A stretch of DNA of 62,877 nt, the filler included, from Collodictyon triciliatum (Eukaryota): the NCBI GenBank assembly GCA_043381765.1. It is 13 parts of 13 records of this genome, joined end to end, with 100 filler letters (N's around TTAATTAATTAA, not from the genome) between each part and the next. Parts side by side here need not be neighbours in the genome. Positions count along the whole stretch, not along the records: positions 42,848 to 48,205 come from JBHJMP010005267.1; 12 more parts are not named here. One strand, written 5' to 3'. The position numbers and the translations under genes were made by a program. Position 1 is the stretch's first letter; each line of letters opens with the position of its first letter. Positions 5,370-62,498 of this stretch are shown here, piece by piece. Under the pieces are notes generated by a model, which was given only the letters and a program-made list of their open reading frames with translations, was not told where the DNA came from and did not search any database.

Positions 5370-5469
5370 NNNNNNNNNNNNNNNNNNNNNNNNNNNNNNN
5401 NNNNNNNNNNNNNTTAATTAATTAANNNNNNNNNNNNNNNNNNNNNNNNNNNNNNNNNNNNNNNNNNNN
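5370..5469. other. Artificial contig spacer 44N-TTAATTAATTAA-44N (also at 10838, 16318, 21780, 26371, 31831, 37290, 42748, 48206, 53663, 59118, 61505)
   Basis: The same 100-bp six-frame-stop linker occurs 12 times. Most flanking contigs are 5355-5380 bp in near-descending order and end in microsatellites. Confidence 0.98.
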
Positions 5470-6169: not shown

Positions 6170-7929
6170 NNNNNNNNNNNNNNNNNNNNNNNNNNNNNNN
6201 NNNNNNNNNNNNNNNNNNNNNNNNNNNNNNNNNNNNNNNNNNNNNNNNNNNNNNNNNNNNNNNNNNNNNNNNNNNNNNNNNNNNNNNNNNNNNNNNNNNN
6301 NNNNNNNNNNNNNNNNNNNNNNNNNNNNNNNNNNNNNNNNNNNNNNNNNNNNNNNNNNNNNNNNNNNNNNNNNNNNNNNNNNNNNNNNNNNNNNNNNNNN
6401 NNNNNNNNNNNNNNNNNNNNNNNNNNNNNNNNNNNNNNNNNNNNNNNNNNNNNNNNNNNNNNNNNNNNNNNNNNNNNNNNNNNNNNNNNNAACATAAAAC
6501 AAAACAAAACAAAACAAAACAAAACAAAACGAAATAAAGTAAAATAAAGTGAAGTAAAATAAAATAAAATAAAAACTGGGTAATAGTCTCACACCCGCAG
6601 TCGGCCTAGCGCACCAGGACACTTGCACCGCAACTATGAGTCCGAGTCCATCACTATCACAAACCCCAGAACAATGCCTCTCCCCGCCTTTCTGCATGTC
6701 TTCCTGGCAAAGTCTTCCGCTTGAAACACACCTCACAGGCGCACACATCACCAAAAAGCGAAGCCTGCCGCGGTTTTCTTTGGTTGGGATGGACAAATCT
6801 GTCGATGAAAACGGATTCCATTTGCGGAATAATCAGTGGTTGTCGCTGTCATGTTTAAAGCACCCGGTTTCCCTCGCGCGGTTGCCAGCGAGAAGGCGGC
6901 TCCTTTGGTAGATTTCAGAGTCTGTTGCCGGCATGGAATAGGTTCTGTGAGAGGTGTATGTTCAGTAATATCGGCATGTGCTTGCCTTCGTGCGCCCTAA
7001 GCAAGTGGATGCAGATGGCATGCGAAAAATTGTAGCTTACTTTGGTGATATTGTTAAAGGCACGGCAAGATGTTGTTGTCCTTGGTAGGGAAAGCAAGTT
7101 ACGAAAACATGAGGAAAAGAGGAGATAAAAATACGATGTATTCTGCGACCAAGGCGCTGGTAGCTTTGCACGTACATTGGTATTTCTAAGGCAAACATAC
7201 CCCAGTTTTGTCAGGTATATTAGGTTAGATGTTATTTGAATCGAATAAAGATAAAAAAAATATTTGGGCTAGTAGTTGACGAAGTGATACATATCCCATA
7301 AAAGCTAGGTGCTTGAAACTCATTTGCTCAGTGTTTGTAATTTGTCACATATCCATTATCCCATGATTATGTATGCTTTTTTTCCCCTTTATTCGATTCA
7401 AGGGAAGGAAGGATTCTTAGATTATTTTTTTTTTTTTTTTTTACAGTCCGACGTGGTTGTATGCGCCTTGGTTGAAAGCAGTGATGCGTGTCTGATAAGG
7501 GTGCAGGCCGGCTTGGTAGGGAAGCTGGATTCATGGTTCATCACTATGCACCCGAGAGGGTTGGGAATAATTACAACTCTAAAGAGCTGCAACCATGATT
7601 GTGTATGTTAATAGTATTATTACGACTATATGGGTTTGCGTGTCCCTTAATTTCATTTAACAAATAATACGCTATAATGATACGATGCTAATTAAGGATA
7701 GAAATTCGAGAGGCCTTGAATTATTCTAACACGGGAGATTTGATACTCTGCAGGATGCTATTTGTGCGATTATATGGCCAGACTGCTTCACCTCAAGATT
7801 GTCCTCACTCGCGTAGGGTGATAATTTGCTCTGGGTGTTCCACCTTCTATATCAATTACTCGGGCTCGGCGTCAATTATATAGTTTAACATAAATTGCAG
7901 AATGATGTGCGGATGCAATATCTATTAAT

Positions 7930-10837: not shown

Positions 10838-10937
10838 NNNNNNNNNNNNNNNNNNNNNNNNNNNNNNNNNNNNNNNNNNNNTTAATTAATTAANNNNNNN
10901 NNNNNNNNNNNNNNNNNNNNNNNNNNNNNNNNNNNNN

Positions 10938-13900
10938 CATAATAATGAGCACGAGACGAAATAATAAAAATGAAAAATGAATATATTCAAATGTGTGCAT
11001 TCCATGGAGCCCTGCTTGCTAGACACTATTTTTTCGGTTCCACTTTCACCTTTCCTACTCTTTTCCTCTTTTTTCCTTTTTTCCTTGTTGTTACCATTTG
11101 TTATTACCCTTGATTTGCCTACACTTTTTTTTAGAGAAGTTGTATATCTATGTACATCGGATGACTCATAGCTATGAACATATGATGTAGCCCGTCCTCG
11201 AAAATAGACTGGATGGCATCGTTCAAATCTCTTTCTCAACGCATTCCTTCGCCACCTGCAAGTTCTCTACTACTCAGACCCTGTGAGTGAAGGCATGTGG
11301 AAAAAGCTGAGAAAGAGATTCAACCTCGCCTTGTCTCTCTCATGCAAGCACAAGACCCAGGCTATAGGCCAAACCGCAGGATATAATTCCTGATTACCGA
11401 CCACTTCTCTGTCACCCAGCCAACAAGTAGCGTCCACGCAATCGGTGGCCAGCAAACCAAATCCAAAAATCCCTATATCTTGCAATAAGAGAAAAAAAAA
11501 GAATCACTGGATTGTATGATGCTAGTTGAGAAAATGTGATAGATGTGTCGCTTAGTGCATGGTTATGTGTGATATTTGTACACACCGATATCTCATTGAT
11601 ATATTATTTGAGCATTCCGATATGTTACATCATATTTTCCACAAATGTGGTCGTGTTCTGGGTGTCATTTCCAAAAATAGCTGGGAATCTGTGATTGCAT
11701 TGGGAACGGGTAAACAAACAAAAGACGGTTCTCTGGATAAACAAGGATACGAACAAACTGCACAAATCAAACAATCACTCATAAATCACGCATTGCGACG
11801 GAGTTGGGTGCGACTAACGAAAAAAGGCAGGTCGCGCAGAAGTCAACATGTACGCCCCACTCGAGGATTCCCGCACAAAGAATAGCCCGTACGCATACGG
11901 CATCGAAGACATCGAGTCGGCCGCTGGAACTCAGCAAAGTGCCAGTCAAGCAGCTGCATCAAAGCCCGCGTATGAATCGTGGACGGCCGAGCAGGTTTGG
12001 CTTCTGTTGAGAGACCACAAGTTCGACGATGCGGTGTGCAATGACTTTCTCAGCCAAGGCGTCGATGGGCAGCGCTTTGGGAGATTGAGCTATGTCGAAC
12101 TCCAACCGCCTCTTTTCCGAGGAGACCAACCGACACGCCAGAGACTCTTTGAGCTAATTGTAAACTTTATTCAGGGCACCAGACGCGAGGCACCCACACC
12201 AGTCGGATACCAATCGAACTTTGCTGGAGACTCACAGACTCAAGGAGGGACATCCGGATGGAAGGGACACGATTCGTCCGTGTCCGGGGAAGAGGAGCTT
12301 GTGGAGCATTCTACATGGGGCGACCTTTATGTCGGGAGAGAAACTGGTGGCTACAAACCGTGAGACTCAAGCCTTTTTCATCATATTTTTCATACATTCT
12401 AGGTGAGGTGTTTTAAGTGCCTTAGCTTAACTATATTATTATTTCCCTTTTTTTCTGCCCAAAGAAGTTTTTTTTTGAGTGTTATTCTAAAAATTATTGC
12501 TAATCGTTTCATTCTTATAAAATTGTAGGAATATGCTCAACAAACGAGCTGCTGGGATGGTGTTTATTCCAACCATGATTGGCTCTGCGATTACCTTCCC
12601 CATCGCGCTCTCAGGGAATATTTCCTTTATTGTAGCTATAGGTGTAACTGGGGGGATTTTCGTTGCAATGTTAGCCACTGTTTTTTTCATGGTTTCAGAA
12701 ATGCTGGAATTTAAATTTTCTAGGACATATGTGAGTGAGGCCATGAAACAAGAGAACTTGTGTCATTTTCTCTCTTTTTTAAATAATGGAAAATATGCCG
12801 AATGATTGATCTTGTAGTTCATAATAACATATAATGCGGCTTTTAAATCACTTCTGACAACTGTGCACTACGTAGGTTTTTGTTAAAAAAGGAGACAAAT
12901 TTGGTCACTTTATACCAATCAATTACATCAGCAGCATTTCCGCCAGAACTGAAAACAGCGCTAAAGATAAAATGCACTCATTTTCACTCAATGTTAAATT
13001 TAAGGAAGGTTTTATTGTGATGGACTCCAGCTCAGTTAAGCTGCCAGTAGCATTCGTATCTGCCCAGAGGGTAAAAGTCATGGGACAGAAGCTTGCTCGA
13101 TTACTTAACGTTCCATACGAAGAGCATTATGAATATTGATGATGATTTTGGCCATATTTTGAGAGACTTAAGCTACAACCTACTGACTTCTAAGAGCTAC
13201 CAACGGCCCGGCTCAATGACATAGCCATTTTCTGAATCAAATATAATAAAGCTTAACCAGCCCATAATAATGAGCACGAGACGAAATAATAAAAATGAAA
13301 AATGAATATATTCAAATGTGTGCATTCCATGGAGCCCTGCTTGCTAGACACTATTTTTTCGGTTCCACTTTCACCTTTCCTACTCTTTTACTCTTTTACT
13401 CTTTTGACCTTTTTCCTTATTGTTACCATTTGTTATTACCCTTGATTTGCCTACACTTTTTTTTAAGAGAAGTTGTATATCTATGTGCCTTGGATGGCTC
13501 ATAGCTATGAATATATGATGTAGCCCGTCCTCGAAAATAGGCTGGATGACATCGTTCAAATCTCTTTCTCAAAGCCTTCCTTCGCCACCTGCATGTTCTC
13601 TACTTCTCAGACCCTGTGAGTGAAGGCATGTGGAAAAAGCTGAGAAAGAGATTCAACCTCGCCTTGTCTCTCTCATGCAAGCACAAGACCCAGGCAACAG
13701 GCCAAACCGCAGGATATAATTCCTGATTACCGACCACTTCTCTGTCACCCAGCCAACAAGTAGCGTCCACGCAATCGGTGGCCAGCGAACCAAATCCAAA
13801 AATCCCTATATCTTGCAATGAGAGAGAAAAATCACTGGGTTGTATGATGCTAATTGAGAAAATATGTTAGATGTGTCGCTTAGTGCATGGTTATGTGTGA

Positions 13901-14667
13901 TATTTGTACACATCGATATCTCATTGATATATTATTTGAGCGTTCCTATATGTTACATCATATTTTCCACAAATGTGGTCCTGTTCTGGGTGTCATTTCC
14001 AAAAATAGCTGGGAATCTGTGATTGCATTGGGAACGGGTAAACAAACAAAAGACAGTTCTCTGGATAAACAAGGATACGAACAAACTGCACAAATCAAAC
14101 AATCACTCATAAATCGCGCATTGCCATGGAGTTGGGCGCGACTAACGAAAAAAGGCAGATCACGCAGAAGTCAACATGTACACCCCACTCGAGGATTCCC
14201 GCACAAAGAATAGCCCGTACGCATACGGCATCGAAGACATCGAGTCGGCCGCTGGAACTCAGCAGAGTGCCAGTCAAGTAGCTGCATCAAAGCCCGCGTA
14301 CGAATCGTGGACGGCCGAGCAGGTTTGGCTTCTGTTGAGAGACCACAGGTTCGACGATGCAGTGTGCAATGACTTCCTCAGCCAAGGCGTCAATGGGCAG
14401 CGCTTTGGGAGATTGAGCTATGTCGAACTCCAACCGCCTCTTTTCCGAGGAGACCAACCGACACGCCAGAGACTCACTCTTTGAATTGATTGTCAACTAT
14501 GTTTAGGGCAACAGACGCGGGGCACCCACACCAATCAGATACCAATCAAACTTTGCTGGAGACTCACAGACTCAAGGAGGGACATCCGGGTGGAAGGGAC
14601 ACGAGTCGTCCGTGTCCGGGGAAGAGGAGCTTGTGGAGCATTCTGCATTGGGCGACCTTTATGTCGG
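10938..14667. repeat. Near-identical ~1.4-kb direct repeat (10938-12335 vs 13263-14667)
   Basis: Both copies start cataataatgagcacgagacg and stay colinear with scattered substitutions until ctttatgtcgg. Confidence 0.95.
11848..13139 (+). CDS. SAM domain + two-TM membrane protein, paralog A
   Basis: Exons 11848-12359, ~12528-12730, ~12875-13139. SAM motif WTAEQVWLLL...FLSQGVDGQRFGRLSYVEL...RQRLFELI, two hydrophobic helices, C-terminus ...VMGQKLARLLNVPYEE. Confidence 0.7.
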
Positions 14668-15474: not shown

Positions 15475-16417
15475 TTCACCTCTTGGACTGCAGCGCACAC
15501 ATCACTCATTTTACATCAAAGTGTCACGTCATAACAGGGAGCTATTCGGATTGGTGAATCGATGTCTCCATAGGCCAGAAAAGAATAAACTGGAAGCAAA
15601 ACAAATCATGACAGAGCTACAAAAATCACAGTTCTGAATAACATCATTTTAACAAATAAATGGAAGACATTAGTTTCGCCAGTCAGGAAATAAAAAATAC
15701 ACATTTTTCATGTTTTTTTTTTATTGTTTCTCTTATGTGTGTAATCAGTCTTATTCAATCGTTACTGAAGGATAACTTCACTCAAGCTCTTTTTTTTTTA
15801 TCTTGGACGCAATCACCCTTGAGCCTATGGACAGCGCGATGCACTCTTGCAAATGGTTGATTTATGTGTTGTCGAGCGAGTTCAAAAATAGTTGAAACTG
15901 ATGAAGTGGTTAAAACTACTTCATTCAAGATAAAAATGTACCGCTCTCCTGCTCTGTAGTCCTGGCTGCTCCCGAAGAAAGAACCTCCTCAAGAGCTCGA
16001 CTACCAGGTTTTCAACCAAGAACAATATATCGGAAAGTATCGTGTCCTTAGCCAGCAATTGTCAGGGATTCGTCTTGCCATCTCGATTGCAGGGAATAGA
16101 TTTCAATTAAGGGTGTTGTGCCCACCCAAGAAACTAATTAGGCCAAGTTGGCCAAAGCTATCTTTGTAAATCCTCATTTTACCTGATACACGCGGACGAG
16201 CCCAACCAACGAGGAGCGCAAGATGGTCGGAGGGTACCCCTCCAGAGCAAGTATTCGTCCGAAAGGATATAAGAGCCCAGCCCCAACCCCGCTTACAACT
16301 AAAGACACGCCTCCTAANNNNNNNNNNNNNNNNNNNNNNNNNNNNNNNNNNNNNNNNNNNNTTAATTAATTAANNNNNNNNNNNNNNNNNNNNNNNNNNN
16401 NNNNNNNNNNNNNNNNN

Positions 16418-29454: not shown

Positions 29455-30740
29455 TTATGGTGTTATCTCATTCGCTCGAGCGAGAGAATAATCAAAGAGC
29501 TAGTAATAAGACATTTTTTTAAAAAATATTTAGAGTAAATCATTTCATACAGGAAATCACCAATTTAAGAATGAGCGTTTTGTCCATGAATCCGACGAAT
29601 TCTCACTTTTGGGAAGATGTGGCACAGATGATGCCCGGACGGACAGTGGACGAATGCTACCGGAAATATAATGCTGTTTATAGGCGTGAGTTTAAACCAA
29701 ATTATAGTAACATATATATTACAAGGATTCTTTGGACTTCTGGATATGTGCCTTTAATTTTTTTACTATGCACATATCATTTTTGTTTTAAAGAAAGGGA
29801 GCTAGAATCATACAATAAAAAACATTTCATCAGTTTATCAATTGCCTTTCTATTTCTCTCCCAATTATATATACGAATAAAGATTTTTGCGCATTCGTCA
29901 GCAAATATTACACATTTTCTTGTCCAAAAGGTAAAACACAATAAAATATCTCTTATGAATCCTCTAGGAGCTAACAGCAAAATTGACGAGAAGAGAACCA
30001 CAGAGCCGCCCTCGAATCCTCTAGAGAAGCAAGAACTACGCATCGAGGGTGGAGCAGGGACTTTGAAACTGAAGCGAGCGATTCGGCACGTGATACAGGT
30101 ATCCGAGAAGAACCACAACGACGACATATTTGAGTCCACGCCGATGAAAGCACAGACCATAACACCCAGTCGCTCGTATCTCCTCAATACCTCATATGAA
30201 GGCTTTGTGGTTCCAGCTTCTGGAAAAAAGGTATTCGCTCAATCCACATAAACAAATGCAAACACATACAAACGTACCAATACACAGAAAAGCGTGCATC
30301 GCTGAGGAAATAACCGTGGTAAACGTGTTACTCATTTACCTCGCCTACAAAAAAGATAGCCTACTGCACATGTCATAAATGAAACAAATATGAAAGCTCG
30401 CTGTGCATTACCTATCTCATATTTTTACCCCTCTATAGCCCGACGAAATCACCCCAATCAAATCTCTCGAGTCTAGCTTCGACTCAGATAATCTGTTCAA
30501 CTCCGACCCCTACCAAGCAACAGACCATTCTAAAATTGACGCATACATCCACAAAATCCAGCAGAAGCGCAAAGTTACAACCAGCAGCAGGGTATCGCCC
30601 ACCACTATTTAACTATCATACCGGCAATTCTCCACATACATACATACATACATACATACATACATACATACATACATACATACATACATACATACATACA
30701 TACATACATACATACATACATACATACATACATACATACA

Positions 30741-30824
<84 letters not shown>

Positions 30825-31064
30825 AGCCCACTCAGCGGCTGAATTTATAACCAGACGACCTCCCGAAAGCAACTGCGAACGCCCATCGCATCACCAGTGT
30901 CAACAACAAAACGGGCCCGCCAAAGTGCTAGCTTCTCGCGTGATGTCAAAAAAGTCATGGAGCAGAACGGAGTCTCGCTCACGCAAAGACAAAGTCGAAA
31001 CGATACATCCGACACCGAAGAACAGGAAGGCTCCTTTTGGTCAGATGCAGAGGAAGATGCATAG
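26869..31064 (+). CDS. MIS18BP1: M18BP1/KNL2 (Mis18-binding protein 1) homolog, 5' truncated
   Basis: CENP-C-like motif SSRGRVIMKPLEYWRNERV (~28549-28602). SANT/Myb domain WSRM/EITNLRMSVLSMNPTNSHFWEDVAQMMPGRTVDECYRKY. Then GAGTLKLKRAIRHVI...NDDIFESTP, IDAYIHKIQ and an acidic end EEQEGSFWSDAEEDA*, in the same order as vertebrate M18BP1. Confidence 0.8.
30635..30825. repeat. Compound (ACAT)n(AAGA)n intronic microsatellite
   Basis: Direct reading. Confidence 0.95.
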
Positions 31065-41150: not shown

Positions 41151-42652
41151 TACATCCATTTTCAGTAGAATAATTTAGAAGCAAGAAATTGGCCAATTTT
41201 TCTCCATGAACATGTGTGAATAGAGTGAGATAGTAACCTGCTCTGTCTCGAATATCTGAGATATGTTTTTGAATTTTAATTTACTTGAAAGGATGCTTTT
41301 TATATTAGATGCAATTCTTTTTCTATCTGTTCCTTTCTCTTTTTTTTTTTTTCTGTTTAAAACCTAAATCGGCATAATTCGTGTGGCAGTAATGAAGCAG
41401 CTCAGAAACTTGGCTGAAAATAACTTGTTGGGAATGTCTCAGAATCAAAATACGAATGATGATCAAGAATCGATTGCCCAGCTGATAAAAAAAAATCATG
41501 TCAAGTTATTTATTAGTGAAATATTGGTATTTTTTTCCTTGACTAAGTTAAAACATGCAGCTTATACTACGAATATTATCAAACAGAAAAATTATATAGT
41601 AATGATAGGGGGAAAAACCTCCCAATCACCCTCTTCAGAGTAGGTTTTCAGGAACTCGAAAAGAAATGAGATACTGTCCTGCAAAGGGGATTTTTCATTT
41701 CAATGTTGCTAGGGATGAAAAGCTAGTATAATACATCGACCTAGATGTGACTCTAACTGTAATATATCGATTTGTTACCGAATAGAGACATACCGAAGGA
41801 TTGATGGATTTTTCAGAAACAACACGAGCGAGAAGCATAAAGTACTCGTGTATTTTATTCGAAGGAACTATGAATTAAAATGGTTATTAATTGAGCAACC
41901 ATAACTAAAGTGGTGTTATTCAAGATAAAAAAAACGCAGTTTTCTTTGCATCGAATAAAGGGGAAACCCCCCAGGTTTATGTTACATTTTTAAAACTTAT
42001 GTCAATAAAAACATTCTAGGCTGATTGCTGTATGACAATATTACAAAATTTACCACTTGAAATCAAATAAAGGTTGTAGGAAGAGAGAAAACGTAGCCCC
42101 AATGTTTGTGAGTCCTTAAAGATCCTATAAGGCCATATAATCTTTATCAGTTTGAAAAGTACCTCGATATATGATTTAAACATTTATCTCTCAACATGTT
42201 TGAAACCTGTTGACAAAAGCAATAAGGTCTGGGATAAAATTAGGGCGTTGCGTAACCAAGTCCAATTGATATTGAACGACTTGGTTGAAGGTGTCCTATT
42301 GCAAATTCATGCATATTAGGGCATTTAAGATTAAAGTTCCATATTAAGTATTGAAATTAAACTAAGATACCGCTAAGATAGCATAATCAAATAATAAATA
42401 TTGCATGGAAAAAGTGTAGCGCATATTTTAGTGCACCTGCGAACTGGTCACCAATTGAAGCAGACAATTAAACGCAGCAAGAGCATGTCGGCTAGTTTTC
42501 TAGTGGTGGGTAATGATCAATCACAAACCAATCTTGAGCCACCGAGCTCTAAGAAAAGAACAATATTTATACTAGTGAGAAGAAATCCCTACATTCTTGT
42601 GTGACTTTGAAAATATTATTCAGGTAAAATCCATGGAAATACAAAACAATAG

Positions 42653-42747
42653 AGAAGAAGAAGAAGAAGAAGAAGAAGAAGAAGAAGAAGAAGAAGAAGA
42701 AGAAGAAGAAGAAGAAGAAGAAGAAGAAGAAGAAGAAGAAGAAGAAG
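42653..42747. repeat. (GAA)n microsatellite
   Basis: Direct reading at contig end. Confidence 0.95.
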
Positions 42748-43594
42748 NNNNNNNNNNNNNNNNNNNNNNNNNNNNNNNNNNNNNNNNNNNNTTAATTAAT
42801 TAANNNNNNNNNNNNNNNNNNNNNNNNNNNNNNNNNNNNNNNNNNNNTTTGTTTCTTTTTTCCTTTTCTTCTCCTTTTTTTTTTTTTTTGGTCTCATTCA
42901 GCCTGTAAATGAATACACTTCATTACAAAGGTTGTGGCGAATTTGGCTTTATCGCTTTCAAGGCACAACATATTTTTATACAACGAAAGTGTACCCGTAT
43001 ATAGCAGTTTATTGTACAGACAACCATCGAATTAAATCTGGATTGACGAAAGCAGGAGCTTTGATGAATCCAAGAAAGCAACCTGAATAATATAATATTA
43101 TGTTAAGTATATATCGATATAATAAGATTAAAAATATTTAATAATCTCGCTCTTTTCCTGTTATCAATTTTATTCTTTTAATTTATGTAATATTAAAAAT
43201 TACAAACAAGCCCTTAAGTTGGCCCGGACAGAACCCACACCATAAACCTGCCACCAAATTTGTATTTCAAAAAAGCATACTATTCACACTTGCGGTGGTA
43301 ATCATGTTGTTTGGAGCCGATATGTTGACTTTCCGTCGCAATGGATATACAGCCGTCCTTTCGAACTCGCCGAATCAGTTCTCAGCGATTCGTCTCAAAT
43401 CACTTATAACAAAACTTTGTGTGTTTGTTTGCCACAATGCGCACATTTTGAGGGTCTCGGTAGATGCTTGATTTTACCTGAATTGATTTTGTGCAGTTTT
43501 TTTTTTATTATTAAATTGGCCGATTGAGTATTGTTTTATTAAAATTGAAAACTCGGTAGTTCTCTAGAGGAAGAAGTAAAACAAAGACTTTCAG

Positions 43595-45539
43595 ATGAAG
43601 AAAAGAAAACGTCTTGGGTTTGAGAATCTAAAGTATGTAAAACCAGACTATCGAAATGTGATTTTTTTTTACTCTTCCTTTCAACTTCGTGCAGGACCTC
43701 ACTATCGAAATGTGAAAACATCTCTAAAGTCGATTGTTAAGAATGCGGATAACTATGACAAATCAACGATACGGTCTTATTGTGTCATAATTTGGTTACC
43801 GACACTTATCTGTTTGCAAGATTTTACATATTGGAATCACAACAGCTCCCAACAATCGATGAAATGTTAATTTTTTTTCTTTGTACGCTTTAAAGACAGT
43901 CGGAATAATTTCACAAGATAGACCAGCAAGTTTTTTTTTTTTAAAAAAAAAAGCAGAAATGAGTAAAGACATGATGACTTTATATCTCAATGATTTTCGA
44001 TTCCTTTTTTCCTGAGAATAACGCTTTCCGTTGGCTAGACTGTCCCATGTATTACCGTACTTGGCGAAGCAAATGTTAACAGCTTATCATAAACAAATTA
44101 AGCAGCATTCTGTAAAGAGGTTACTGAGCTTTATAAATCAAGCATTTCCTAAAGATGGGGATATTACGGAAGCTATTAAAAGGCAGAGTTACGAAAGTTA
44201 AAAAAAATTATCTTCAAGAAACTCGAAATACTGAAACAATATAAAGAATGGATTAAAACGCATTTGCATCATATCATTACCAGCGATATTGTAAATGGTA
44301 TCGAATATGTCGCCAAAGTCAATCCAAATAAGTACATTCCATGTCTGATTTACATGAATCGCATTTTTGAGGACATTGGAACCAAACTGCTTCAACCAAT
44401 CCCCATAAGAACTAACAATATACCATGTCGTATTACTCTAGATACTGCATTTTTGATATTTCTATTAGTATTTATGAAAAAACATTACTGAAGAATATAT
44501 CAGGATGCAAAGAGACCCTATGAGATAAGTTCTTTGAAATGAAGAGGGTCTTTCATCTAACAGACTACAGTTTCAAGTACATGATACAAACAGAAGGGTT
44601 GGCGGTGTCATTATTGTTTGAAAAGAAAGGTATTTCAAATTCAAAATTCAAATATAACCAAAAGAAAACCCAAGAATGTGTTCATATAGATATACTTTTC
44701 GAAGAGCAATTATCTTTATTAGCGACAAAAAAAAAAGTCAGATTGCACGCAGGCAAGTTTAATTTGGTTTACATGGTGGATGAGACAGGCAAGAAATCAC
44801 GTTACACGACTCACCAAACAAGACATGATAGAAAATCTCTTAAAAATCACAAAATACTCTTGCGCGAGAAAAAAAAGCACAATGCTTCGGGGATATGCAT
44901 GGCAACAGGTTTACAAAGTGCTGTTTCTTTTGTTGCCCTGACTTTTGAAGAGAATCAGCAGTTTGAGACATCAAGAGCATCTTTAATCGTTTTAGAGACA
45001 GGACTGAGTAAACAAAATTCATGCACGGTCAATTATGAAAAAAATCGAAAATATGCATCTATGAAATCAAGATACCAGATAGAATTATCCAGATTTTATG
45101 AACAAGTAACTTTTCGTAAGATGAGATGGAGACAGTATGCTAATACAAAAAGAAGTGAACGGTTGTCTATGGACCGAATCGAAAAGACAGTTGGCAAGGA
45201 TGTTGTACTGGCGTATGGAGGCTGGAGTAGAAAACCTCTGATGAACCATTTTATGCCAACAATCGGAAGAGGATTACGAAAAATACTATCCAAACGTTTT
45301 GAAACAGTTAATGTAGACGAATTTAGAACCTCCAAGATGTGTTGCAACTGCGAAAAAGAACTGGAATATATGACACCGAAAGGAAATACAAAAAAATGTA
45401 CAGATGTCTCATATTTAAAGAATGCCATCGCTCAGAAAGCAAACAAAGTGTATTCTTGACAGGGGACTTTAACAGCGCTAATGATATACTCAACAAGGTT
45501 CTTTTAATCCTTCAAAAAATGCATACACCTTCCTCTTAA
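43595..45539 (+). pseudogene. Fanzor1 (eukaryotic TnpB-family RNA-guided RuvC nuclease) relic, intronless and frameshifted
   Basis: Ordered motifs across frames: VKTSLKSIV; LVTDTYLFARFYIL..LPTID; LSHVLPYLAKQMLT; NPNKYIPCLIYMN...PIRTNNIPCRITLDT; FKYMIQTEGLAVSLLF; RuvC-I VRLHAGKFNL (DPG lost); YGGWS...PTIGRGLRKIL; RuvC-II VDEFRTSKMCCNC; RuvC-III TGDFNSANDI. Confidence 0.85.
43647..43715 (-). mobile_element. Short poly(A)-tailed insertion with 15-bp TSD (second sequence type)
   Basis: ACTATCGAAATGTGA at 43647-43661 and 43701-43715 flanks 39 nt, minus strand GAGGTCCTGCACGAAGTTGAAAGGAAGAGT(A)9. Confidence 0.75.
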
Positions 45540-45550
45540 AAAAAAACAGG

Positions 45551-45710
45551 CTGTCGGGTCTCTCCTGGCAGCCTTCACCACTACAAAATCTTTGTGAAAA
45601 AAGCGGTGAGACCTTGGATATTACTGGACGAAGTTTACCAGTCGAAAGACTGGTTTACTCTTTCTAGTAGAGGAAATAAAGCAGCACACAGAACAATATT
45701 GGGTGGACTC
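45551..45710 (+). ncRNA. Candidate Fanzor omegaRNA scaffold
   Basis: Lies directly 3' of the Fanzor ORF. Stems GGTCTC/GAGACC (45557-62/45608-13) enclosing TTCAC/GTGAA, then TACTGGA/TCTAGTA enclosing ACCAGTC-GAAA-GACTGGT (45637-45654). Confidence 0.5.
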
Positions 45711-45933
45711 AAATTACCAAACCCAGCAATCGATCACGCACGAAAGCTAGTAAGTGGGCAAAGGACGAAGCAGAACAAAACGAAACGGAAATATCGAGTG
45801 TAATTAAGGTGCAAAGGCGACCGCAAGACCGGCACGAGGGTCTGGGGCAAGCGTAATAACTGCGAATAGAAGCGACGCAAAGACACCGCCCCTGCTGCAA
45901 CAATCTAAGCATGCTTTGCTCGCACAGCGGAAG

Positions 45934-47121
45934 ATGACGACCACCCGTAGATTTGTTGCCTCGGATCTACTCTCGTTTAATCGCGTCAACCTCGATCCCC
46001 TGACCGAAACGGTAAGCCACCGACAGAACATCGTGCTTCTCTTCTCTTTCCTCCGGGTTGTCCCTTCTTCCTCTTTTTCCGTCCTGACTTTCGATCGTGA
46101 AAAAAAAAAGACATCCACTGAAAAAAAAAAGACAGTAAGAAAAAGAAAAAGTTTAATGAAAAGAAAACGAAAAAGAAAAAGAAAAAGAAAAAAAAAGAAA
46201 AAGAAGCAAAAGGAAAGCAAAAGGAAAGCAAAAGGAAAGCAAAAGGAAAGAAAAAGAAAAGAAAAGAAGGAAAAGGAAAGAAAAAGGAAAAGGAAAATAT
46301 ACTGATCGAAAGAAACTGCTTTCACACAGTACAATATGGGCTTTTATCTACAATACCTCTCACGCTGGCCAGACTACTTCCTTGTCCAAGAGAGCCCCAG
46401 CAGCCAACTCATGGGATACAGTAAGTTATCTGATGGTCGTGCACACTATTTATTTGATTATTGCGGGCGTTGCTTTTCGGTCGATGTGCAGAACCTAACT
46501 GTTGTGCTTGGCCAATCATTCATACACCATCCTATATGCCTACATTTTTATATTAACATCTACCCATCAAGTTATGGGCAAAGTTGAGGGGGTTGGAGAA
46601 AACTGGCATGGGCATGTCACGGCTGTCACGGTAGCACCAGACTATCGCCGACTCCACATTGCACAGTCCCTGATGAACTCACTGGAGGAGATTTCGGAAA
46701 AGACGTAGAGTTTTATTGATTCGCATGAGTTGATGACGATTTATTTGATTGGACTTTTATAGTTGATGAATATAATTACCAAACCATGAAGATACGACGG
46801 ATACTTTGTGGATCTGTTTGTGCGTGTATCGAACGCAGTCGCGGTAGGAATGTACGAACGGATGGGTTATTCCGTGTATCGACGGGTGATTGGGTACTAT
46901 TCTGGTGAAGAGGATGCCTTTGGTTTGTAGCAGATCATATACCTATTGATATGTGCCCGATTTACCAGAGTCTCTTTTTTTTTTCTTCTTCAAGGTTCTG
47001 AATATCTAAAATGCAACGCCCCCCTTGTTTATCAGACATGAGGAAGGCGCTCCCCCGCGATGTGGACAAGAAGTCAATCATTCCATTGCCCCACCCGGTC
47101 TACCCTGACGATGTGGACTGA
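45934..47121 (+). CDS. NAA20: N-alpha-acetyltransferase 20 (NatB catalytic subunit), 5 exons
   Basis: MTTTRRF..NLDPLTET/YNMGFYLQYLSRWP/MGKVEG..WHGHVTAVTVAPDYRR/YFVDLFVRVSN..YRRVIGYY..EDAF/DMRKALPRD. Confidence 0.95.
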
Positions 47122-47261
47122 ATTGTGCGCGGCTGTGTGCTTCTCGTGTTGCTTCTTTTTTTCTTTTATGCGTATACAACCACACGAGCATTCATAGCGC
47201 AATAAATGAGCATCCTCCTTTTTCTTTCTTTTTTCTATAGAAATGAGCATGTAATCAGAGA

Positions 47262-47368
<107 letters not shown>

Positions 47369-48356
47369 TACACACCACCCACTAGAGTAGGCGAATCAGC
47401 TAAGGTGAAGGATAAATTAATATATAGTGAAGATAGAGGTGATTACTGAAAAAAAATAATTAAACAAGCATATCAAAGAGAAAACGTTCAAGACTTACTC
47501 TAGCGATTGTCATATGTTTTCATTCAATGACGATAACTTGATTTTCAACCATGATATCTAAGTCTCGGGAAAGATGGCTAGAATCTTGACCATATCTCGT
47601 ATAACCGGCATTTCTTCTCGGAAAAAAATAATATAAAACACACGAAAAGATGATAGGAGGACCCAGCCCCAGAAATGATGATAAATACCATATTTTAAAG
47701 GCCTCTACTCACTTATGGGGATTTAGGGAATAGCCTACATGGGGTGCGGACCATTTGTCTGTTTTTCATCGGGCTGGAGGTGTATCAGAAAGAGTTATAT
47801 TCTATCATGGGAACTCGCTGGGAGCTGAAGCGTATGACAGGAAACCAAAAAAAAAAAAAAAAAGAGTCGTATAATATATACGATATGTATGTATACAATT
47901 TTGCCTATTTTCACAGAAATTCGTCTCCTGCCGTCACCTCGTTTGTTGTGGCCACTTTTCCAGCCGCTTGCCACTTCTTTCCCACACACTGCCACACCTG
48001 TCAATGCCCCCGCAGCCTTTTGACAGAGGCCAAGGCGCAGCCCATCCGCATGTGCAGAGGAATAGACAACGATATTTTTTTTTCAGCAAAGCAATACAGA
48101 AAACAGAACAAAACAAAACAAAAACAAAAACAAAAACAAAAACAAAAACAAAAACAAAAACAAAAACAAAAACAAAAACAAAAACAAAAACAAAAACAAA
48201 AACAANNNNNNNNNNNNNNNNNNNNNNNNNNNNNNNNNNNNNNNNNNNNTTAATTAATTAANNNNNNNNNNNNNNNNNNNNNNNNNNNNNNNNNNNNNNN
48301 NNNNNTTTTTTTCTTTTCTTTTCTTTTTTTTTTCTTTTCTTTTTTTTCTTGCTCAC

Positions 48357-48880: not shown

Positions 48881-51800
48881 TTATTCCTGGGCTTGGTTTT
48901 CCTTCTTGCTCTTTTTCTTCTTCGGGAGATCACTTTTCAATTGGTCTTTGGTTTGGCCTCCAGAATCCGAAGCGGCTTTTGCAGGCGGCTTCGACTTCGA
49001 CTTCCAAGGCCGTTGTTGTTCTTGCTCTTGATGATAATATTGTTCTTGATGGTGATATTGTTGTTGATGATATTGTTGATGGTATGGTTCTTGATGATAA
49101 TATTGTTGATGGTGCTGCTGTTGCTGTCTGTAGTTCGGGTAGCTGTGATAGGACGACTGCGCCTCGGCCTGCTTTCGATACTGGGCAGCCCTCTGTGCAG
49201 GCTTTGTGTATGTGTCAAGACGCTGCTGATTGGAATCTGGTTGCTGGTGGGTTTGGGCTTCATAGCCCTGATGTTCCCACTTTTTCGCACTGCTGAAGCC
49301 TCGATAACTATAGTCACTGTGAAGGGGGTTTGTTTGTTTGTTTTGTTTGTTTTGTTTTGTTTTGTTTTGTTTTGTTTTGTTTTGTTTTGTTTTGTTTTGT
49401 TTTGTTTTGTTTTGTTTTGTTTTGTTTTGTTTTGTTTTGTTTTCGACGTGGCAGGTTTTTTGTGAGTCGTATACGAATTGGGGGAGGACTGGTCACCTTC
49501 CGCTTTGGTACGGCGCGAGCTTCTTCAAGGAGATTCTCTGGTTCAGGTCTTTGTCTTCTGAGTTAAGGATTTCCTCCACAGACATCCCGTATGACGAGGG
49601 CTTCACGGAAACGTACTTAAAGCGCACTGGAGTGTCTCCAATCTGCGTTATATGTGGATAGTGAGATGTTTTGTTGATTTGTGCGCGTTTGTATGCATGT
49701 TGGTGAATTGGGTCTGAAGTAGGCATCCTCTCGATTCAAGGATAAGCCAATCATAGACAAGTGTGCTACATTCAATGACATCTTGTGCCGTCTATACCAT
49801 GTCGCTATATCCAAGCTTGAACGTTTCCTCTAGATATTCATCCAACAAATCCTTTGGAAGTGCAGGTTTTTTATCCCCTTTCTTTTTTGACTTTTTTCCG
49901 CCATCTCCATATCCTGGTTCGTCATCTTCGTTGTCGTATTCGGGGATAGGAGCATACGAATCATCCTGGATGAAGGATTGTGTTTAAATAAAACCTTTGC
50001 ATGACACAAGGACATGTTAATATCTTCTTTTTTTTTTTTCAGGGAATGTAATCGCACAAAGTAGAATGATATTGATGTAAATATGCGTGCTGCTTTTACA
50101 TAATCATTATAATAGTCATCATTGAAAGTAGACTCCATCTTTCTCTGGAACTCGTCCGGGTCAAAGTCCCCTTCCAAATCAGCCTCGCTGAATGGTAGTG
50201 ACGAAACGCCGGATATTTGCCTGTGCATGGGAGAATAAGTAAGAATTCGTGTGGCACTCTATCAGTTCAGTTTTAGATGGTGGGGTTTGTATTCTATTCT
50301 AATAACTTGAAGGGGACATAAAAACAGTATAAAATTATTGCAGTTCATGATAGCATGACTCATACTTGATAACATCAAGCTTATTCATGATTTCTTTCTT
50401 CTTCAAGTTTTTCAATCGTTTCAGTTCCTCGGCTCTCTGTAATTTTGCGTGCTCCTCTTTTTCTTTGTGCTTTTCTCTCTGTTCCTTGCGCTTTTCAGCC
50501 TTCACATCCCTATTTCATAAAGAATACATATAAGTCATTTGAATGACACATAATATTAAAATCATTAATATAATGTTTAATGTTTGTTTTTTTGCGTTAT
50601 TAGTGAGAGCGTTGGTGGCGGTTTTTGTCGAGATATCAACTGAGCAAACAATTAAATCATCATTTCCCCATAGAACTACATACCTTCTTACCGACTCTGG
50701 GATTTGTCGGGGGTAATTGATAATTTGATGGGCGTTTCTGGTTCATGTGTTTTTAGAATTGCCCCATTAGAGTAAATTCATTTTTATTGTAGATTAATAA
50801 TTAAAATTAAAAGGAATGTAGTAAGATAGAGAACATGCGAAAAAGGGGATATAATGATATTCTAGACTATTACGGCTCTTCAAATCTAAAGTTGTGAATT
50901 CTTTCAAACTCCTCTTGGAACTCAATTTCCTCCTCTTCCTTCTCGACGTCTTCTACAGTTTTTATAATCTCATCATTTGGGGTTTCCTCACTCTCTCGAG
51001 TACGCTTTTTCCACCCATCAAAAAGCACATAACTAAAAGGAAAAAAATTATTCAAAAAAATCTGCGAATAATGCAGTATTTTTAATAAGGGACTCGATAC
51101 AGATTTTAGCATAAGAATCAATTTCCTTTCAATTGCATATAATTCGTTCCATAACACAATATGAAAAACAAAAGTGAAAGCGAAAGAAAAAAATGTGCAC
51201 GTACTCTCGCAAGAATTTTTCATTTTCATCTATATCTTCTCCGGCCATCTCCCTGAAAAATTCATTATTCTCGATACTGGAAATTTTTTTCTGCGGTAGT
51301 TCGAATATTTAAGTATTTCAACTATTCTATCATCTAAAAAAATAAAATATGAGAATAAAAATAGTTTGTTTATTATCTCATGGATAATGTCAAGGACATG
51401 GTATTATTTTGCGTTTAATCAATAGAGGAAGAAACCTTGATGAGCTCTTCTTTGAGGAAAGATGTATATTCAGCCTCTTCTCTATCCATCTGGTCCTTTG
51501 ACTTTGACTTTTTCATAAGGAAATCAGTCTCTTCCTCAGAACCAGAGTCGATACCTACATTTGAATGAGAAAAATACGTCAGTTTTTTTTAAAAAAAAAA
51601 TCATCATTGTATAGGCTAACTTTACGTTCTTATCCTTTTTCATGTTTATTCTCTTTTTCTTTTTTTCTTTTTTTCCAAATTGTGATAATAGAAAAAAAGA
51701 GAAAAAGTCACACTTCGAATTGTTTCGGAGAATGATTTCTTGGCCAAAATTTGCTTTTCTTGATAAGTTGGGGATGAAGGCCTCATTTTTTGCTTGTTGA

Positions 51801-61504: not shown

Positions 61505-62498
61505 NNNNNNNNNNNNNNNNNNNNNNNNNNNNNNNNNNNNNNNNNNNNTTAATTAATTAANNNNNNNNNNNNNNNNNNNNNNNNNNNNNNNNNNNNNNNN
61601 NNNNTCGGTTTCTCTTCATTGAAAACAGCTGTTTCCAGGTTCATTTCTCCGAAAGATGGGGTGAGCTCATCGACCACAAGGCAAAACAACAACAAGAAAC
61701 ACTTGCGCGGCTAATTCTGTGATGTGCTGCAGAGCAGCAGACAATCAAAAGCCTCGTCACAACAGCCTGAAAAAGTGGCAGTGTGTTCGATTCCAGCACA
61801 TTCCGCATGAGCAGCGACTTTTGCAAAAATAGCAGGTTTCACTGAAAACATGCAGAAATGCGGATTTATTTGACCCTACCTTCACCACATAAACTCACCC
61901 TCGATCAAACCGCGATATATATTGCCGCCTAGGGTCTCCAAGCCTGAATCACTTAGCACAGTCCAAGTAAACTGTCACAAAGTATGGCTTCGCAGCAGGC
62001 GCGAGGCAGGCGCCGGAGTACGCTCTCTGTTGTTGGTAAAAAAATACGGAGAGTAGTGTGCCAGCTTTCAGGATACCAAAGTTCGTCGCAGGAGCGTGAA
62101 CTTTTTACTACCCATAAGCACGTTGAAGATGTGTTTTCTATTTCCTGCGCTTGTCTCTCACTAGGGCATAAGAGACACGTTTCGATAATCCGCAGTCAGG
62201 CGCTGAATACATAATAGTCCACTTTCCCGCGCGCTGCTTCCCTTCCTTCCTTCCTTCCTTCCTACTCTCTTAATCCCTGGCCGAAAAGAAATACGAATGG
62301 ACAAAAGAAACACCCCAGTGTTCGGCAGCAGTTCTGTCATGATTAGTCCTTTGCCTGCGGGTCTCGATCAGTAAGCAAAGAATACAGAGAACCCCTTGGA
62401 CTACCCGCCCTACTGTCTAAAATCGGCGCGGACACGAACTTGCGCTCCCACTCCAGCCCGCCCAATACCGGCAACTGAAACACACTCACTAGGGCAGC

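Follow-up and report, generated by a model that had tools for sequence, protein, structure and literature searches.

A probable decayed Fanzor1 copy in a repeated element of the Collodictyon triciliatum genome

The analysed DNA, a stretch of 62,877 nucleotides of Collodictyon triciliatum (assembly GCA_043381765.1; referred to as the window), contains at 43595-45585 what is very probably a decayed Fanzor1 copy, carried by a repeated element of about 2.6 kb in an intron-bearing nuclear genome, with a GNAT acetyltransferase gene starting about 270 bases downstream. Fanzor1 proteins, when intact, are endonucleases derived from TnpB. The pseudogene is homologous to Fanzor1 and its reading frame is broken; its family is multi-copy and has the Fanzor1 fold. 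The contig bearing it covers only positions 42848-48205 of the window, and statements about the gene neighbourhood hold inside such single pieces. The coordinates of all features are presented in Table 1.

The extent of the pseudogene was determined by comparison with P0001, an intact relative of 648 amino acids. The ATG at 43595 (MKKRKR...) corresponds to residue 1 of P0001, and the relative was traced by tblastn through frames 2, 1, 3, 2 and 1 to residue 642 at 45585 (E values 4e-109 and 2e-66). The part in frame 3, at 45369-45527, corresponds to residues 572-624 with 62% identity (E 9e-19). The only open reading frame (ORF) long enough to stand out is the 311-aa frame at 44524-45459, in agreement with the initial annotation, in which the middle part alone was visible as an ORF. 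Of 1889 candidates compared with this ORF, seven longer proteins matched at E<=0.001, with P0001 as the top match (E 5e-101, 59% identity). The block had been described as intronless, about 1.9 kb long and carrying Fanzor1-like motifs in the right order over several frames. The alignment with P0001, which is colinear and has a longest gap of 18 residues, confirmed both the description and the place of the motifs. From the limits proposed at that time, 43595..45539, the start coincides with Met1 of P0001. The end is too short since 45539 is the stop of the frame-3 piece, and the homology continues for about 45 bases. A second copy within the window was not detected by tblastn with seven related proteins; all of their matches fall in one stretch, so that the window holds no second copy.

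The assignment to Fanzor1 was obtained at the level of both sequence and fold. The 311-aa ORF matched three PDB sequences at E<=10, all of which are Fanzor1 proteins with solved structures: PpFz1 of Parasitella (E 2.3e-12, residues 195-283), SpuFz1 of Spizellomyces (4.8e-5) and GtFz1 of Guillardia (6.2e-5). With a profile built from six relatives (A1), the corresponding E values were 7.7e-65, 8.3e-62 and 8.9e-56, and no PDB match beyond these three proteins was obtained at E<=1. The AlphaFold2 (AF2) model of P0001 was built with a set of 85 proteins (A3), hand-picked from 291 proteins, 580-700 aa, each second or third in list order. The model reached a predicted local distance difference test score (pLDDT) of 86.3 and a predicted template modelling score (pTM) of 0.84. 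In the Foldseek comparison of this model with the PDB, the best seven matches were Fanzor1 structures (E 6e-27 to 1e-22, template modelling (TM) score 0.64-0.81), followed by Cas12X (6e-7, TM 0.32), Fanzor2 (1.2e-4) and ISDra2 TnpB (1.9e-3). The bilobed REC and RuvC fold of the solved Fanzor1 proteins is seen in the model of P0001, the closest intact relative. The absence of any TnpB/Fanzor match or RuvC fold had been named in the initial annotation as the outcome that would speak against it; the ORF, the profile and the P0001 model all match Fanzor1.

The motif residues were compared with those of the relatives. The codon at 44746 encodes His, at a position occupied by Asp in 24 of the 25 sequences of set A2 (as Asp-Pro) and in all 85 sequences of A3, where D364 (P0001 numbering) is invariant. 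In the alignment with the solved Fanzor1 proteins, this His sits on the catalytic Asp, and the DEFRTS of the pseudogene sits on DEFRTS or DEYKTS. The previously noticed loss of the RuvC-I Asp (HAG for DPG) was thus verified, as were the retention of the RuvC-II DEFRTS, with the Glu codon at 45319, and the loss of one zinc-finger Cys. The latter is a Phe at 45414 in place of C587 of P0001; Cys is found there in at least 90% of A3, and the loose ends of other copies also read Cys. The RuvC-III Asp (45465) is kept.

According to Bao & Jurka (2013, PMC3627910), Fanzor1 proteins carry the motif D-X(125,275)-[TS][TS]-X-X-[C4 zinc finger]-X(5,50)-RD. The pseudogene does not contain this motif in its intact form, having His for D, three of the four Cys, and GD for RD. 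The order and spacing of the motif are kept, with 193 residues between the His and the Thr-Ser, and the relatives have all the motif residues. Because the residues are replaced though their order and spacing are preserved, the pseudogene is a descendant of the family and not a working member of it. In Fanzors, the RuvC-II Glu is described as relocated to the position just before [TS][TS], with no acidic residue in the canonical place (Jiang et al. 2023, PMC10530073). The relocated Glu is present here, as the Glu of VDEFRTS (45319) aligns with those of PpFz1 IDEFRTS and SpuFz1 LDEYKTS; by our reading of the alignment, YGGWS would occupy the canonical RuvC-II place. At the N-terminus, residues 1-6 (MKKRKR) look like a putative nuclear localisation signal. 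A Lys/Arg-rich start is also found in P0001 and in the viral relatives, and residues 1-10 of the P0001 model are disordered. A predicted nuclear localisation signal is reported for about 60% of Fanzor ORFs (Jiang et al. 2023, PMC10530073).

The reading frame at 43595-45585 is interrupted by six frameshifts and three in-frame stops and contains, in addition, a 54-bp insertion. The insertion forms an 18-residue gap in the P0001 alignment, and the contigs of other copies skip 53-56 bases at this place. The several frameshifts mentioned in the initial annotation were located as six from the borders of the high-scoring segment pairs (HSPs) with P0001, and the view of a dead copy is supported by the stops, the frameshifts and the replaced invariant Asp. 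In the tree described below, the terminal branch of the pseudogene is 0.59 vs 0.008 of P0001; a long branch is expected because the copy is decaying.

A gene that is intact or nearly so, with frameshifts that are homopolymer errors of a fragmentary draft assembly, would also produce a broken frame. Of the six shifts, four fall in runs of A or T, the contigs of the assembly are mostly about 5.4 kb long, and the other copies continue through these places with a length that differs by one base. However, the three stops, the His, the lost Cys and the Gly of RD are substitutions and not length errors, and the 54-bp insertion is a duplication. The shift near 44474 lies outside a homopolymer and is reproduced by a 151-nt contig of the public run X5, which is identical to 44350-44500; this break is therefore not peculiar to the source assembly. 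Taking both sides together, an intact gene was considered extremely improbable.

As to the decayed copy, its intact family members would be expected to take a guide RNA from the 3' end of their own element and to cut DNA beside a short target-adjacent motif. The present copy would be unable to act as a guided nuclease because its frame is broken nine times and three motif residues, i.e. the RuvC-I Asp, a zinc ligand and the Arg before the RuvC-III Asp, are replaced. Judging from the sequence, its function has presumably been lost.

To describe the repeat family, four public runs (X1, X2, X3, X5) were aligned to 43000-46600 at an identity of at least 85%. Sampled words of the stretch occur at small shares, 0.05-0.09, in all 16 public runs listed. 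In X2 (organism A), 407 contigs with 85-100% identity were found, 57, 100, 140 and 110 of them being at >=99, 95-99, 90-95 and <90% identity, respectively. The corresponding numbers for the 453 contigs of X3 (organism B), also with 85-100% identity, were 44, 109, 177 and 123. The contigs of X1-X3 fill each depth bin of 43000-45661; no cover was detected at 45662-45903 in any of the four runs. In both X2 and X3, the GT..AG joints 46010>46329 and 46420>46572 were found in the neighbouring gene, and its introns had no cover. Due to the spliced joints and the uncovered introns and 45662-45903, X2 and X3 behave as transcript assemblies, and they behave as derived from close relatives of the source organism or from the same species. 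The uncovered parts argue for the RNA nature of X2 and X3 only, and not for an absence of DNA. A gene with two GT..AG introns, spliced out in X2 and X3 contigs, thus lies on the same contig as the pseudogene, which places the latter in a eukaryotic genome. With a CLU-like host ORF as the query, an atlas search yielded generic TPR and UNC-45 clusters only, and no protein match was obtained at E<=1e-10. The freshwater runs contained fewer contigs, 40 in X1 (one at >=99%) and three in X5, a metatranscriptome (one identical), and hint at a freshwater source organism.

The contigs of other copies lack the 54-bp insertion, differ by one base in length at four of the six frameshift places and are unlike the pseudogene at the codons of the first stop (44013), the His (44746) and the Gly (45462). 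These comparable defects are private to this copy. Since they are absent from the other copies, the family includes, or did until recently, members that are better preserved and probably transcribed, and the pseudogene is one dead member of a multi-copy family for which transcription is probable. The suggestion in the initial annotation that intact members may exist elsewhere was thereby supported indirectly: the X2 and X3 contigs are without the defects of this copy, whereas a complete intact ORF above 62% identity was not seen among the sequences compared.

Loose contig ends were detected before 43020 (one contig of X2 and four of X3) and behind 45620 (X1), which suggests that the repeat unit ends near 45620-45661. 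The left edge of the present copy is probably a truncation, because other copies share leftward sequence (left of 43020) that is absent here. Two parts of the 575-nt leader are shorter in other copies, by 93-116 bases inside 43078-43219 and by 129-173 bases inside 43385-43559, so that the leader varies from copy to copy through AT-rich insertions or deletions.

The relatives of P0001 were searched in protein and viral data sets. A full HMMER pass with P0001 resulted in 3147, 1703 and 537 cluster representatives at E<=1e-3, E<=1e-10 and E<=1e-30, respectively. In a word-based search, 243 proteins were obtained at E<=1e-10 among 7037 candidates. The best protein outside the cluster of P0001 in that search had 46% identity, and one relative bears the UniRef name 'Transposase, viral metagenome'. 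The P0001 cluster has three members, two of which are 648 aa long and encoded by contigs of 2610 and 2597 nt. The search of viral sets that had been proposed in the initial annotation revealed relatives encoded by 464 of the 536 candidate stretches of IMG/VR; in the JGI metagenomes, relatives are encoded by at least 554 of the 599 candidate stretches listed. The best 80 loci of each set (L001-L160) have 37-40% identity to P0001, and many of them lie on giant-virus bins (GVMAG) of up to 258 kb. Their ORFs are open, with a median length of 624 aa (range 576-661), and at least two of the 160 are truncated where the available DNA stops.

By blastn with four query loci, all 159 other loci were matched across the ORF, and the similarity stops 70-100 nt past the stop codon. 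Three of the four query loci have inverted ends of 31-36 nt, each starting behind TA, and delimit units of 2.4, 3.9 and 4.6 kb. The two larger units encode a DDE_3 + HTH transposase on the opposite strand (Pfam 3e-16 and 3e-17), relatives of which were found at 54 of the 160 loci. The viral units are the Mariner/Tc1-type Fanzor1 carrier as described in 2013 (PMC3627910). The larger units also contain passenger genes, a treble-clef zinc-finger + DUF723 ORF in one and a C2H2 zinc-finger ORF in another.

The initial annotation had also asked for placement of the protein in a tree. In a quick maximum-likelihood tree of 58 hand-picked rows, the pseudogene was grouped with P0001, P0009 and P0187 (Shimodaira-Hasegawa-like approximate likelihood ratio test (SH-aLRT) 99). 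This group belongs to a set of 21 rows (SH-aLRT 96), apart from a 26-row clade (99) with 12 viral loci. Its sister group includes a protein labelled 'viral metagenome' in UniRef. The background statement that Fanzor1 travels with giant viruses holds for the relatives, which are present on giant-virus contigs, but the lineage of the pseudogene itself stands apart from the 12 viral loci.

The large sets of relatives with giant-virus DNA context, 464 of 536 in IMG/VR, the many GVMAG contigs among the 80 best IMG/VR loci and the viral metagenome protein in the sister group would also be compatible with an endogenous viral element, in which case the block would derive from a giant-virus genome integrated here instead of from a cellular transposon family. 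However, a spliced host gene follows about 270 bases downstream, and the Pfam matches among the 26 contig ORFs scanned are limited to its acetyltransferase. The hundreds of diverged variants in two runs resemble a repeat family rather than a single integration. In addition, the 80 best IMG/VR and the 80 best metagenome loci have all at most 40% identity to P0001, and the clade of the pseudogene (SH-aLRT 99) lies outside that of the 12 viral loci. A viral integration was accordingly judged to be quite improbable, if somewhat less so than an intact gene, and a decayed copy of a cellular repeat family is the preferred explanation.

The flanks of the pseudogene were inspected for element ends and a transposase. 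The inverted-repeat scan of 42850-46600, in which the 25 longest of 100 pairs were inspected, gave only pyrimidine/purine-rich pairs and one weak 32-nt pair at 72%. The comparison of 45500-45800 with 42849-43700 by blastn-short resulted only in homopolymer matches of 8-10 nt, and that of the contig DNA with the ends of the viral element L008 only in low-complexity matches. Besides the acetyltransferase gene's own frames, the contig has 33 stop-to-stop frames of at least 60 aa. With 26 of these 33 scanned with Pfam, the acetyltransferase was the sole match and no transposase was detected; the frames left unscanned were six low-complexity frames over 45807-46495 and the acetyltransferase N-terminal frame. 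By tblastn, the viral transposases had no match in the window (best E 0.39). A Tc1/mariner (IS630-like) carrier was not recognised at this copy, as neither a DDE_3 transposase nor TA-flanked inverted ends were found. The initial remark that no transposase is visible on the contig agrees with the negative Pfam and tblastn results, and it concerns little DNA because the contig spans only 42848-48205.

Several points weigh against the interpretation given above. Four of the six frameshifts are in runs of at least four identical bases and could be assembly errors, and independent contig support was obtained for one frameshift only, at about 44474. In Pfam-A, the 311-aa ORF matched Cas12f1-like_TNB alone, at E 0.04, which is under the curated cut-off, and P0001 had no Pfam-A match. 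The accession PF26935.1, which relatives carry in the protein search results, was absent from the Pfam scan of P0001. The AF2 model of the 311-aa ORF was poor (pLDDT 51, pTM 0.28) and unfit for a fold search. A complete intact ORF of the pseudogene's own family (>85% DNA identity) was not seen, P0001 and P0009 being 52-62% identical. The kind of X2 and X3 is given in the run table as a guess ('RNA?'), and contig depth is no measure of expression. Finally, inverted terminal repeats, a target duplication, a transposase or a guide RNA were not found in the window, so that the mobile-element part of the interpretation is drawn from the copy number. The missing element ends are, for their part, weak evidence since the left end of the copy is probably lost.

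The 3' region of the pseudogene contains two hairpins, the first of which (45549-45577) is located within the last part of the ancestral frame. For 45400-45665, the sense strand was more stable than 200 of 200 shuffles (z -2.77), and the corresponding antisense value was z -0.65. In the viral clade, a hairpin was found at an equal relative place, and 4 of its 11 pairs show compensatory changes in an alignment that covers 60 of the 122 distinct sequences. A covariance model (R1) of the viral 3' region, run with filters off, had no match at 45400-45700 of the contig; its 14 matches at E<=10, the best being 0.31, are located elsewhere. Rfam gave no matches in the entire window. The hairpins of the pseudogene are a plausible candidate for a guide-RNA remnant. 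The hairpin of the giant-virus clade corresponds to the last ~70 ORF bases (e.g. L008:6752-6925, L021:6743-6902). A second hairpin there overlaps the stop codon, with both sides varying between subgroups, and is followed by a T-rich spacer and the inverted end. These 3' hairpins of the giant-virus Fanzor1 clade are probably the guide-RNA scaffold of the clade.

The 3' end also bears on whether the relic has been reused, e.g. in the promoter or 5' regulation of the acetyltransferase gene or to produce a non-coding RNA. The relic lies in the orientation of the gene, with its end about 270 bases ahead of the ATG, and its 3' end is folded more stably than the shuffles on the sense strand only. The X5 contig identical to 44350-44500 comes from an RNA library. 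On the other hand, no contig joins the element to the gene, with 45662-45903 being uncovered in all four runs, and the X5 evidence is a lone 151-nt contig of depth 2 from a metatranscriptome, which may be DNA carry-over. Such a reuse is hardly to be expected, and a relic in decay remains the preferred interpretation. The ATG of the acetyltransferase gene is at 45934, about 270 bases past the repeat end, in the same orientation as the pseudogene; its sequence is reminiscent of NAA20.

The pseudogene and its family were compared with known systems. With SpuFz1 of Spizellomyces punctatus (PDB 8GKH, 9CEU-9CEZ; Saito et al. 2023, PMC10432273), positions 4-610 of the 634 of A1 align over the entire Fanzor part (E 8.3e-62), and the P0001 model superposes at TM 0.73-0.81. 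The size of about 620-650 aa is similar, and the motif order of RuvC-I Asp, Glu in xDE[FY]xTS, zinc ribbon and RD is common to both. In contrast, the identity is only about 20%, the pseudogene is broken and without the RuvC-I Asp, and the inverted repeats and guide RNA defined for SpuFz1 were both not found at the pseudogene. PpFz1 of Parasitella parasitica (PDB 9CF0-9CF3) is the best solved match of both the 311-aa ORF and A1. It is longer, with 722-726 modelled residues and TM 0.64-0.71 to the P0001 model, and it is intact and active as solved, whereas the pseudogene is not. TnpB (ISDra2, PDB 8H1J) and Fanzor2 (ApmFz2, PDB 9B0L) share the RuvC and zinc-ribbon core, as reflected in their Foldseek E values. 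Nevertheless, their TM values are at most 0.33, neither was matched by the sequence (E<=10) or by the profile (E<=1), the family of the pseudogene is about 200 residues longer, and no IS607 or IS605 parts are nearby.

The giant-virus Fanzor1 elements (PGv-1 and relatives as given by Bao & Jurka 2013, PMC3627910; L001-L160) resemble the family in their identity to P0001 over nearly the full length, in a basic N-terminus and in their layout, with the gene placed rightmost in a unit of 2.4-4.6 kb, after several hundred bases of leader. They differ by open frames, TA-adjacent inverted ends, the DDE_3 + HTH transposase and the covarying 3' hairpin, none of which was found at the pseudogene, and the pseudogene is placed in another clade of the tree. 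The nearest relatives found were P0001 and P0009 (648 aa, metagenome contigs), with 52-62% identity per segment and colinearity from Met1 to 642. The contigs of 2610 and 2597 nt match the size of the repeat unit. In contrast to the pseudogene, these proteins are intact with all motif residues, and they are too distant for the element family of 85-100% copies.

Publications of 2013 and 2023 (PMC3627910, PMC10432273, PMC10530073) already describe Fanzor1 genes in eukaryotes and giant viruses as well as the relics into which they decay. The present copy is an ordinary relic of a known family, and its lineage is new as a member and not as a kind. Its value for annotation is that a 2-kb stretch with patchy ORFs upstream of a housekeeping acetyltransferase gene is correctly named a Fanzor1 pseudogene. 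Routine annotation will miss such relics, as Pfam-A barely detects the family. The lineage of the pseudogene, P0001, P0009 and P0187 was not among the giant-virus loci sampled, and because of the hundreds of variants in the two transcript-like data sets, it may point to an organism whose Fanzor1 family is active and would merit a search for intact nucleases. A broader proposal can be put forward only tentatively and is itself somewhat doubtful, namely that the relic is the tip of a high-copy, Fanzor1 family that is still transcribed in a freshwater eukaryote, with hundreds of expressed variants in two related organisms, forming a cellular lineage sister to giant-virus clades. If so, the intact members would be active, compact RNA-guided nucleases of about 650 aa, and the family would record the exchange of transposons between giant viruses and hosts.

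Table 1. Positions of the features in the window and, where indicated, in viral loci.
Feature	Position	Strand	Basis or remark
Repeat unit, ~2.6 kb	43020..45661	+	575-nt leader, Fanzor1 pseudogene, short tail; extent from match to other copies
Fanzor1 pseudogene	43595..45585	+	residues 1-642 of 648-aa P0001 colinear (tblastn, blastp); matches to solved Fanzor1
N-terminal basic stretch MKKRKR	43595..43612	+	read directly
54-bp in-frame insertion	43662..43715	+	duplicated 20-nt borders 43642-43661 / 43696-43715, 90% identity
Frameshift 1, frame 2 to 1	43757..43762	+	HSP borders; other copies one base different in length
Frameshift 2, frame 1 to 3, in T run	43871..43879	+	HSP borders, sequence
Two in-frame stops (44013-15, 44019-21)	44013..44021	+	all aligned contigs of other copies differ at 44013
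Frameshift 3, frame 3 to 2	44175..44181	+	HSP borders; length differs in other copies
Frameshift 4, frame 2 to 1, no homopolymer	44472..44476	+	HSP borders; length differs in other copies
In-frame stop	44521..44523	+	P0001 alignment
RuvC-I catalytic position, His-Ala for Asp-Pro	44746..44751	+	all aligned contigs of other copies differ at 44746
Catalytic Glu and Thr-Ser (EFRTS of DEFRTS), kept	45319..45333	+	E555, S559 invariant in A3
Zinc ribbon	45340..45425	+	first pair CCNC kept; second pair F-K-E-C, Cys replaced at 45414
Frameshift 5, frame 1 to 3, run of seven A inside zinc ribbon	45389..45396	+	HSP borders; lengths of other copies
RuvC-III motif, Gly-Asp for Arg-Asp	45462..45467	+	all aligned contigs of other copies differ at 45462
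Frameshift 6, frame 3 to 1, run of nine A	45530..45546	+	HSP borders
Candidate guide-RNA scaffold remnant	45549..45655	+	11-bp hairpin 45549-45577, hairpin 45638-45655
GNAT acetyltransferase gene	45934..46930	+	Pfam Acetyltransf_1 E 3.5e-6; introns 46011-46328, 46421-46571
Low-complexity tracts	42650-42747, 45990-46310, 47200-47400, 30700-30850, 49300-49470		
Viral element units	L021:3012-6902, L006:2329-6941, L008:4514-6916		31-36-nt inverted ends

The window is a chain of 13 contigs, mostly of about 5.4 kb and one of them shorter, linked by N44-TTAATTAATTAA-N44. The linkers are at 5370-5469, 10838-10937, 16318-16417 and on to 61505-61604, and an extra N run is at 6170-6490. Two near-identical ORF segments, 11818-12360 and 14146-14481 (plus strand), are located about 2.3 kb apart on one contig and share ...EVNMY.PLEDSRTKNSPYAYGIEDIESAAGTQQSASQ...; a host gene seems to have been duplicated here in tandem not long ago. 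The Pfam scan, which covered the longer segment only, gave no match at E<=0.001. Long microsatellites and purine or pyrimidine tracts of low complexity, among them (GAA)n, AAG/AAAG-rich tracts, an Asn-coding triplet run and others, are common at contig ends and between genes, and they account for the top-ranked spurious 'inverted repeats' near the Fanzor1 locus. The other contigs of the window encode PH, CLU, SAM and Kri1 domains.

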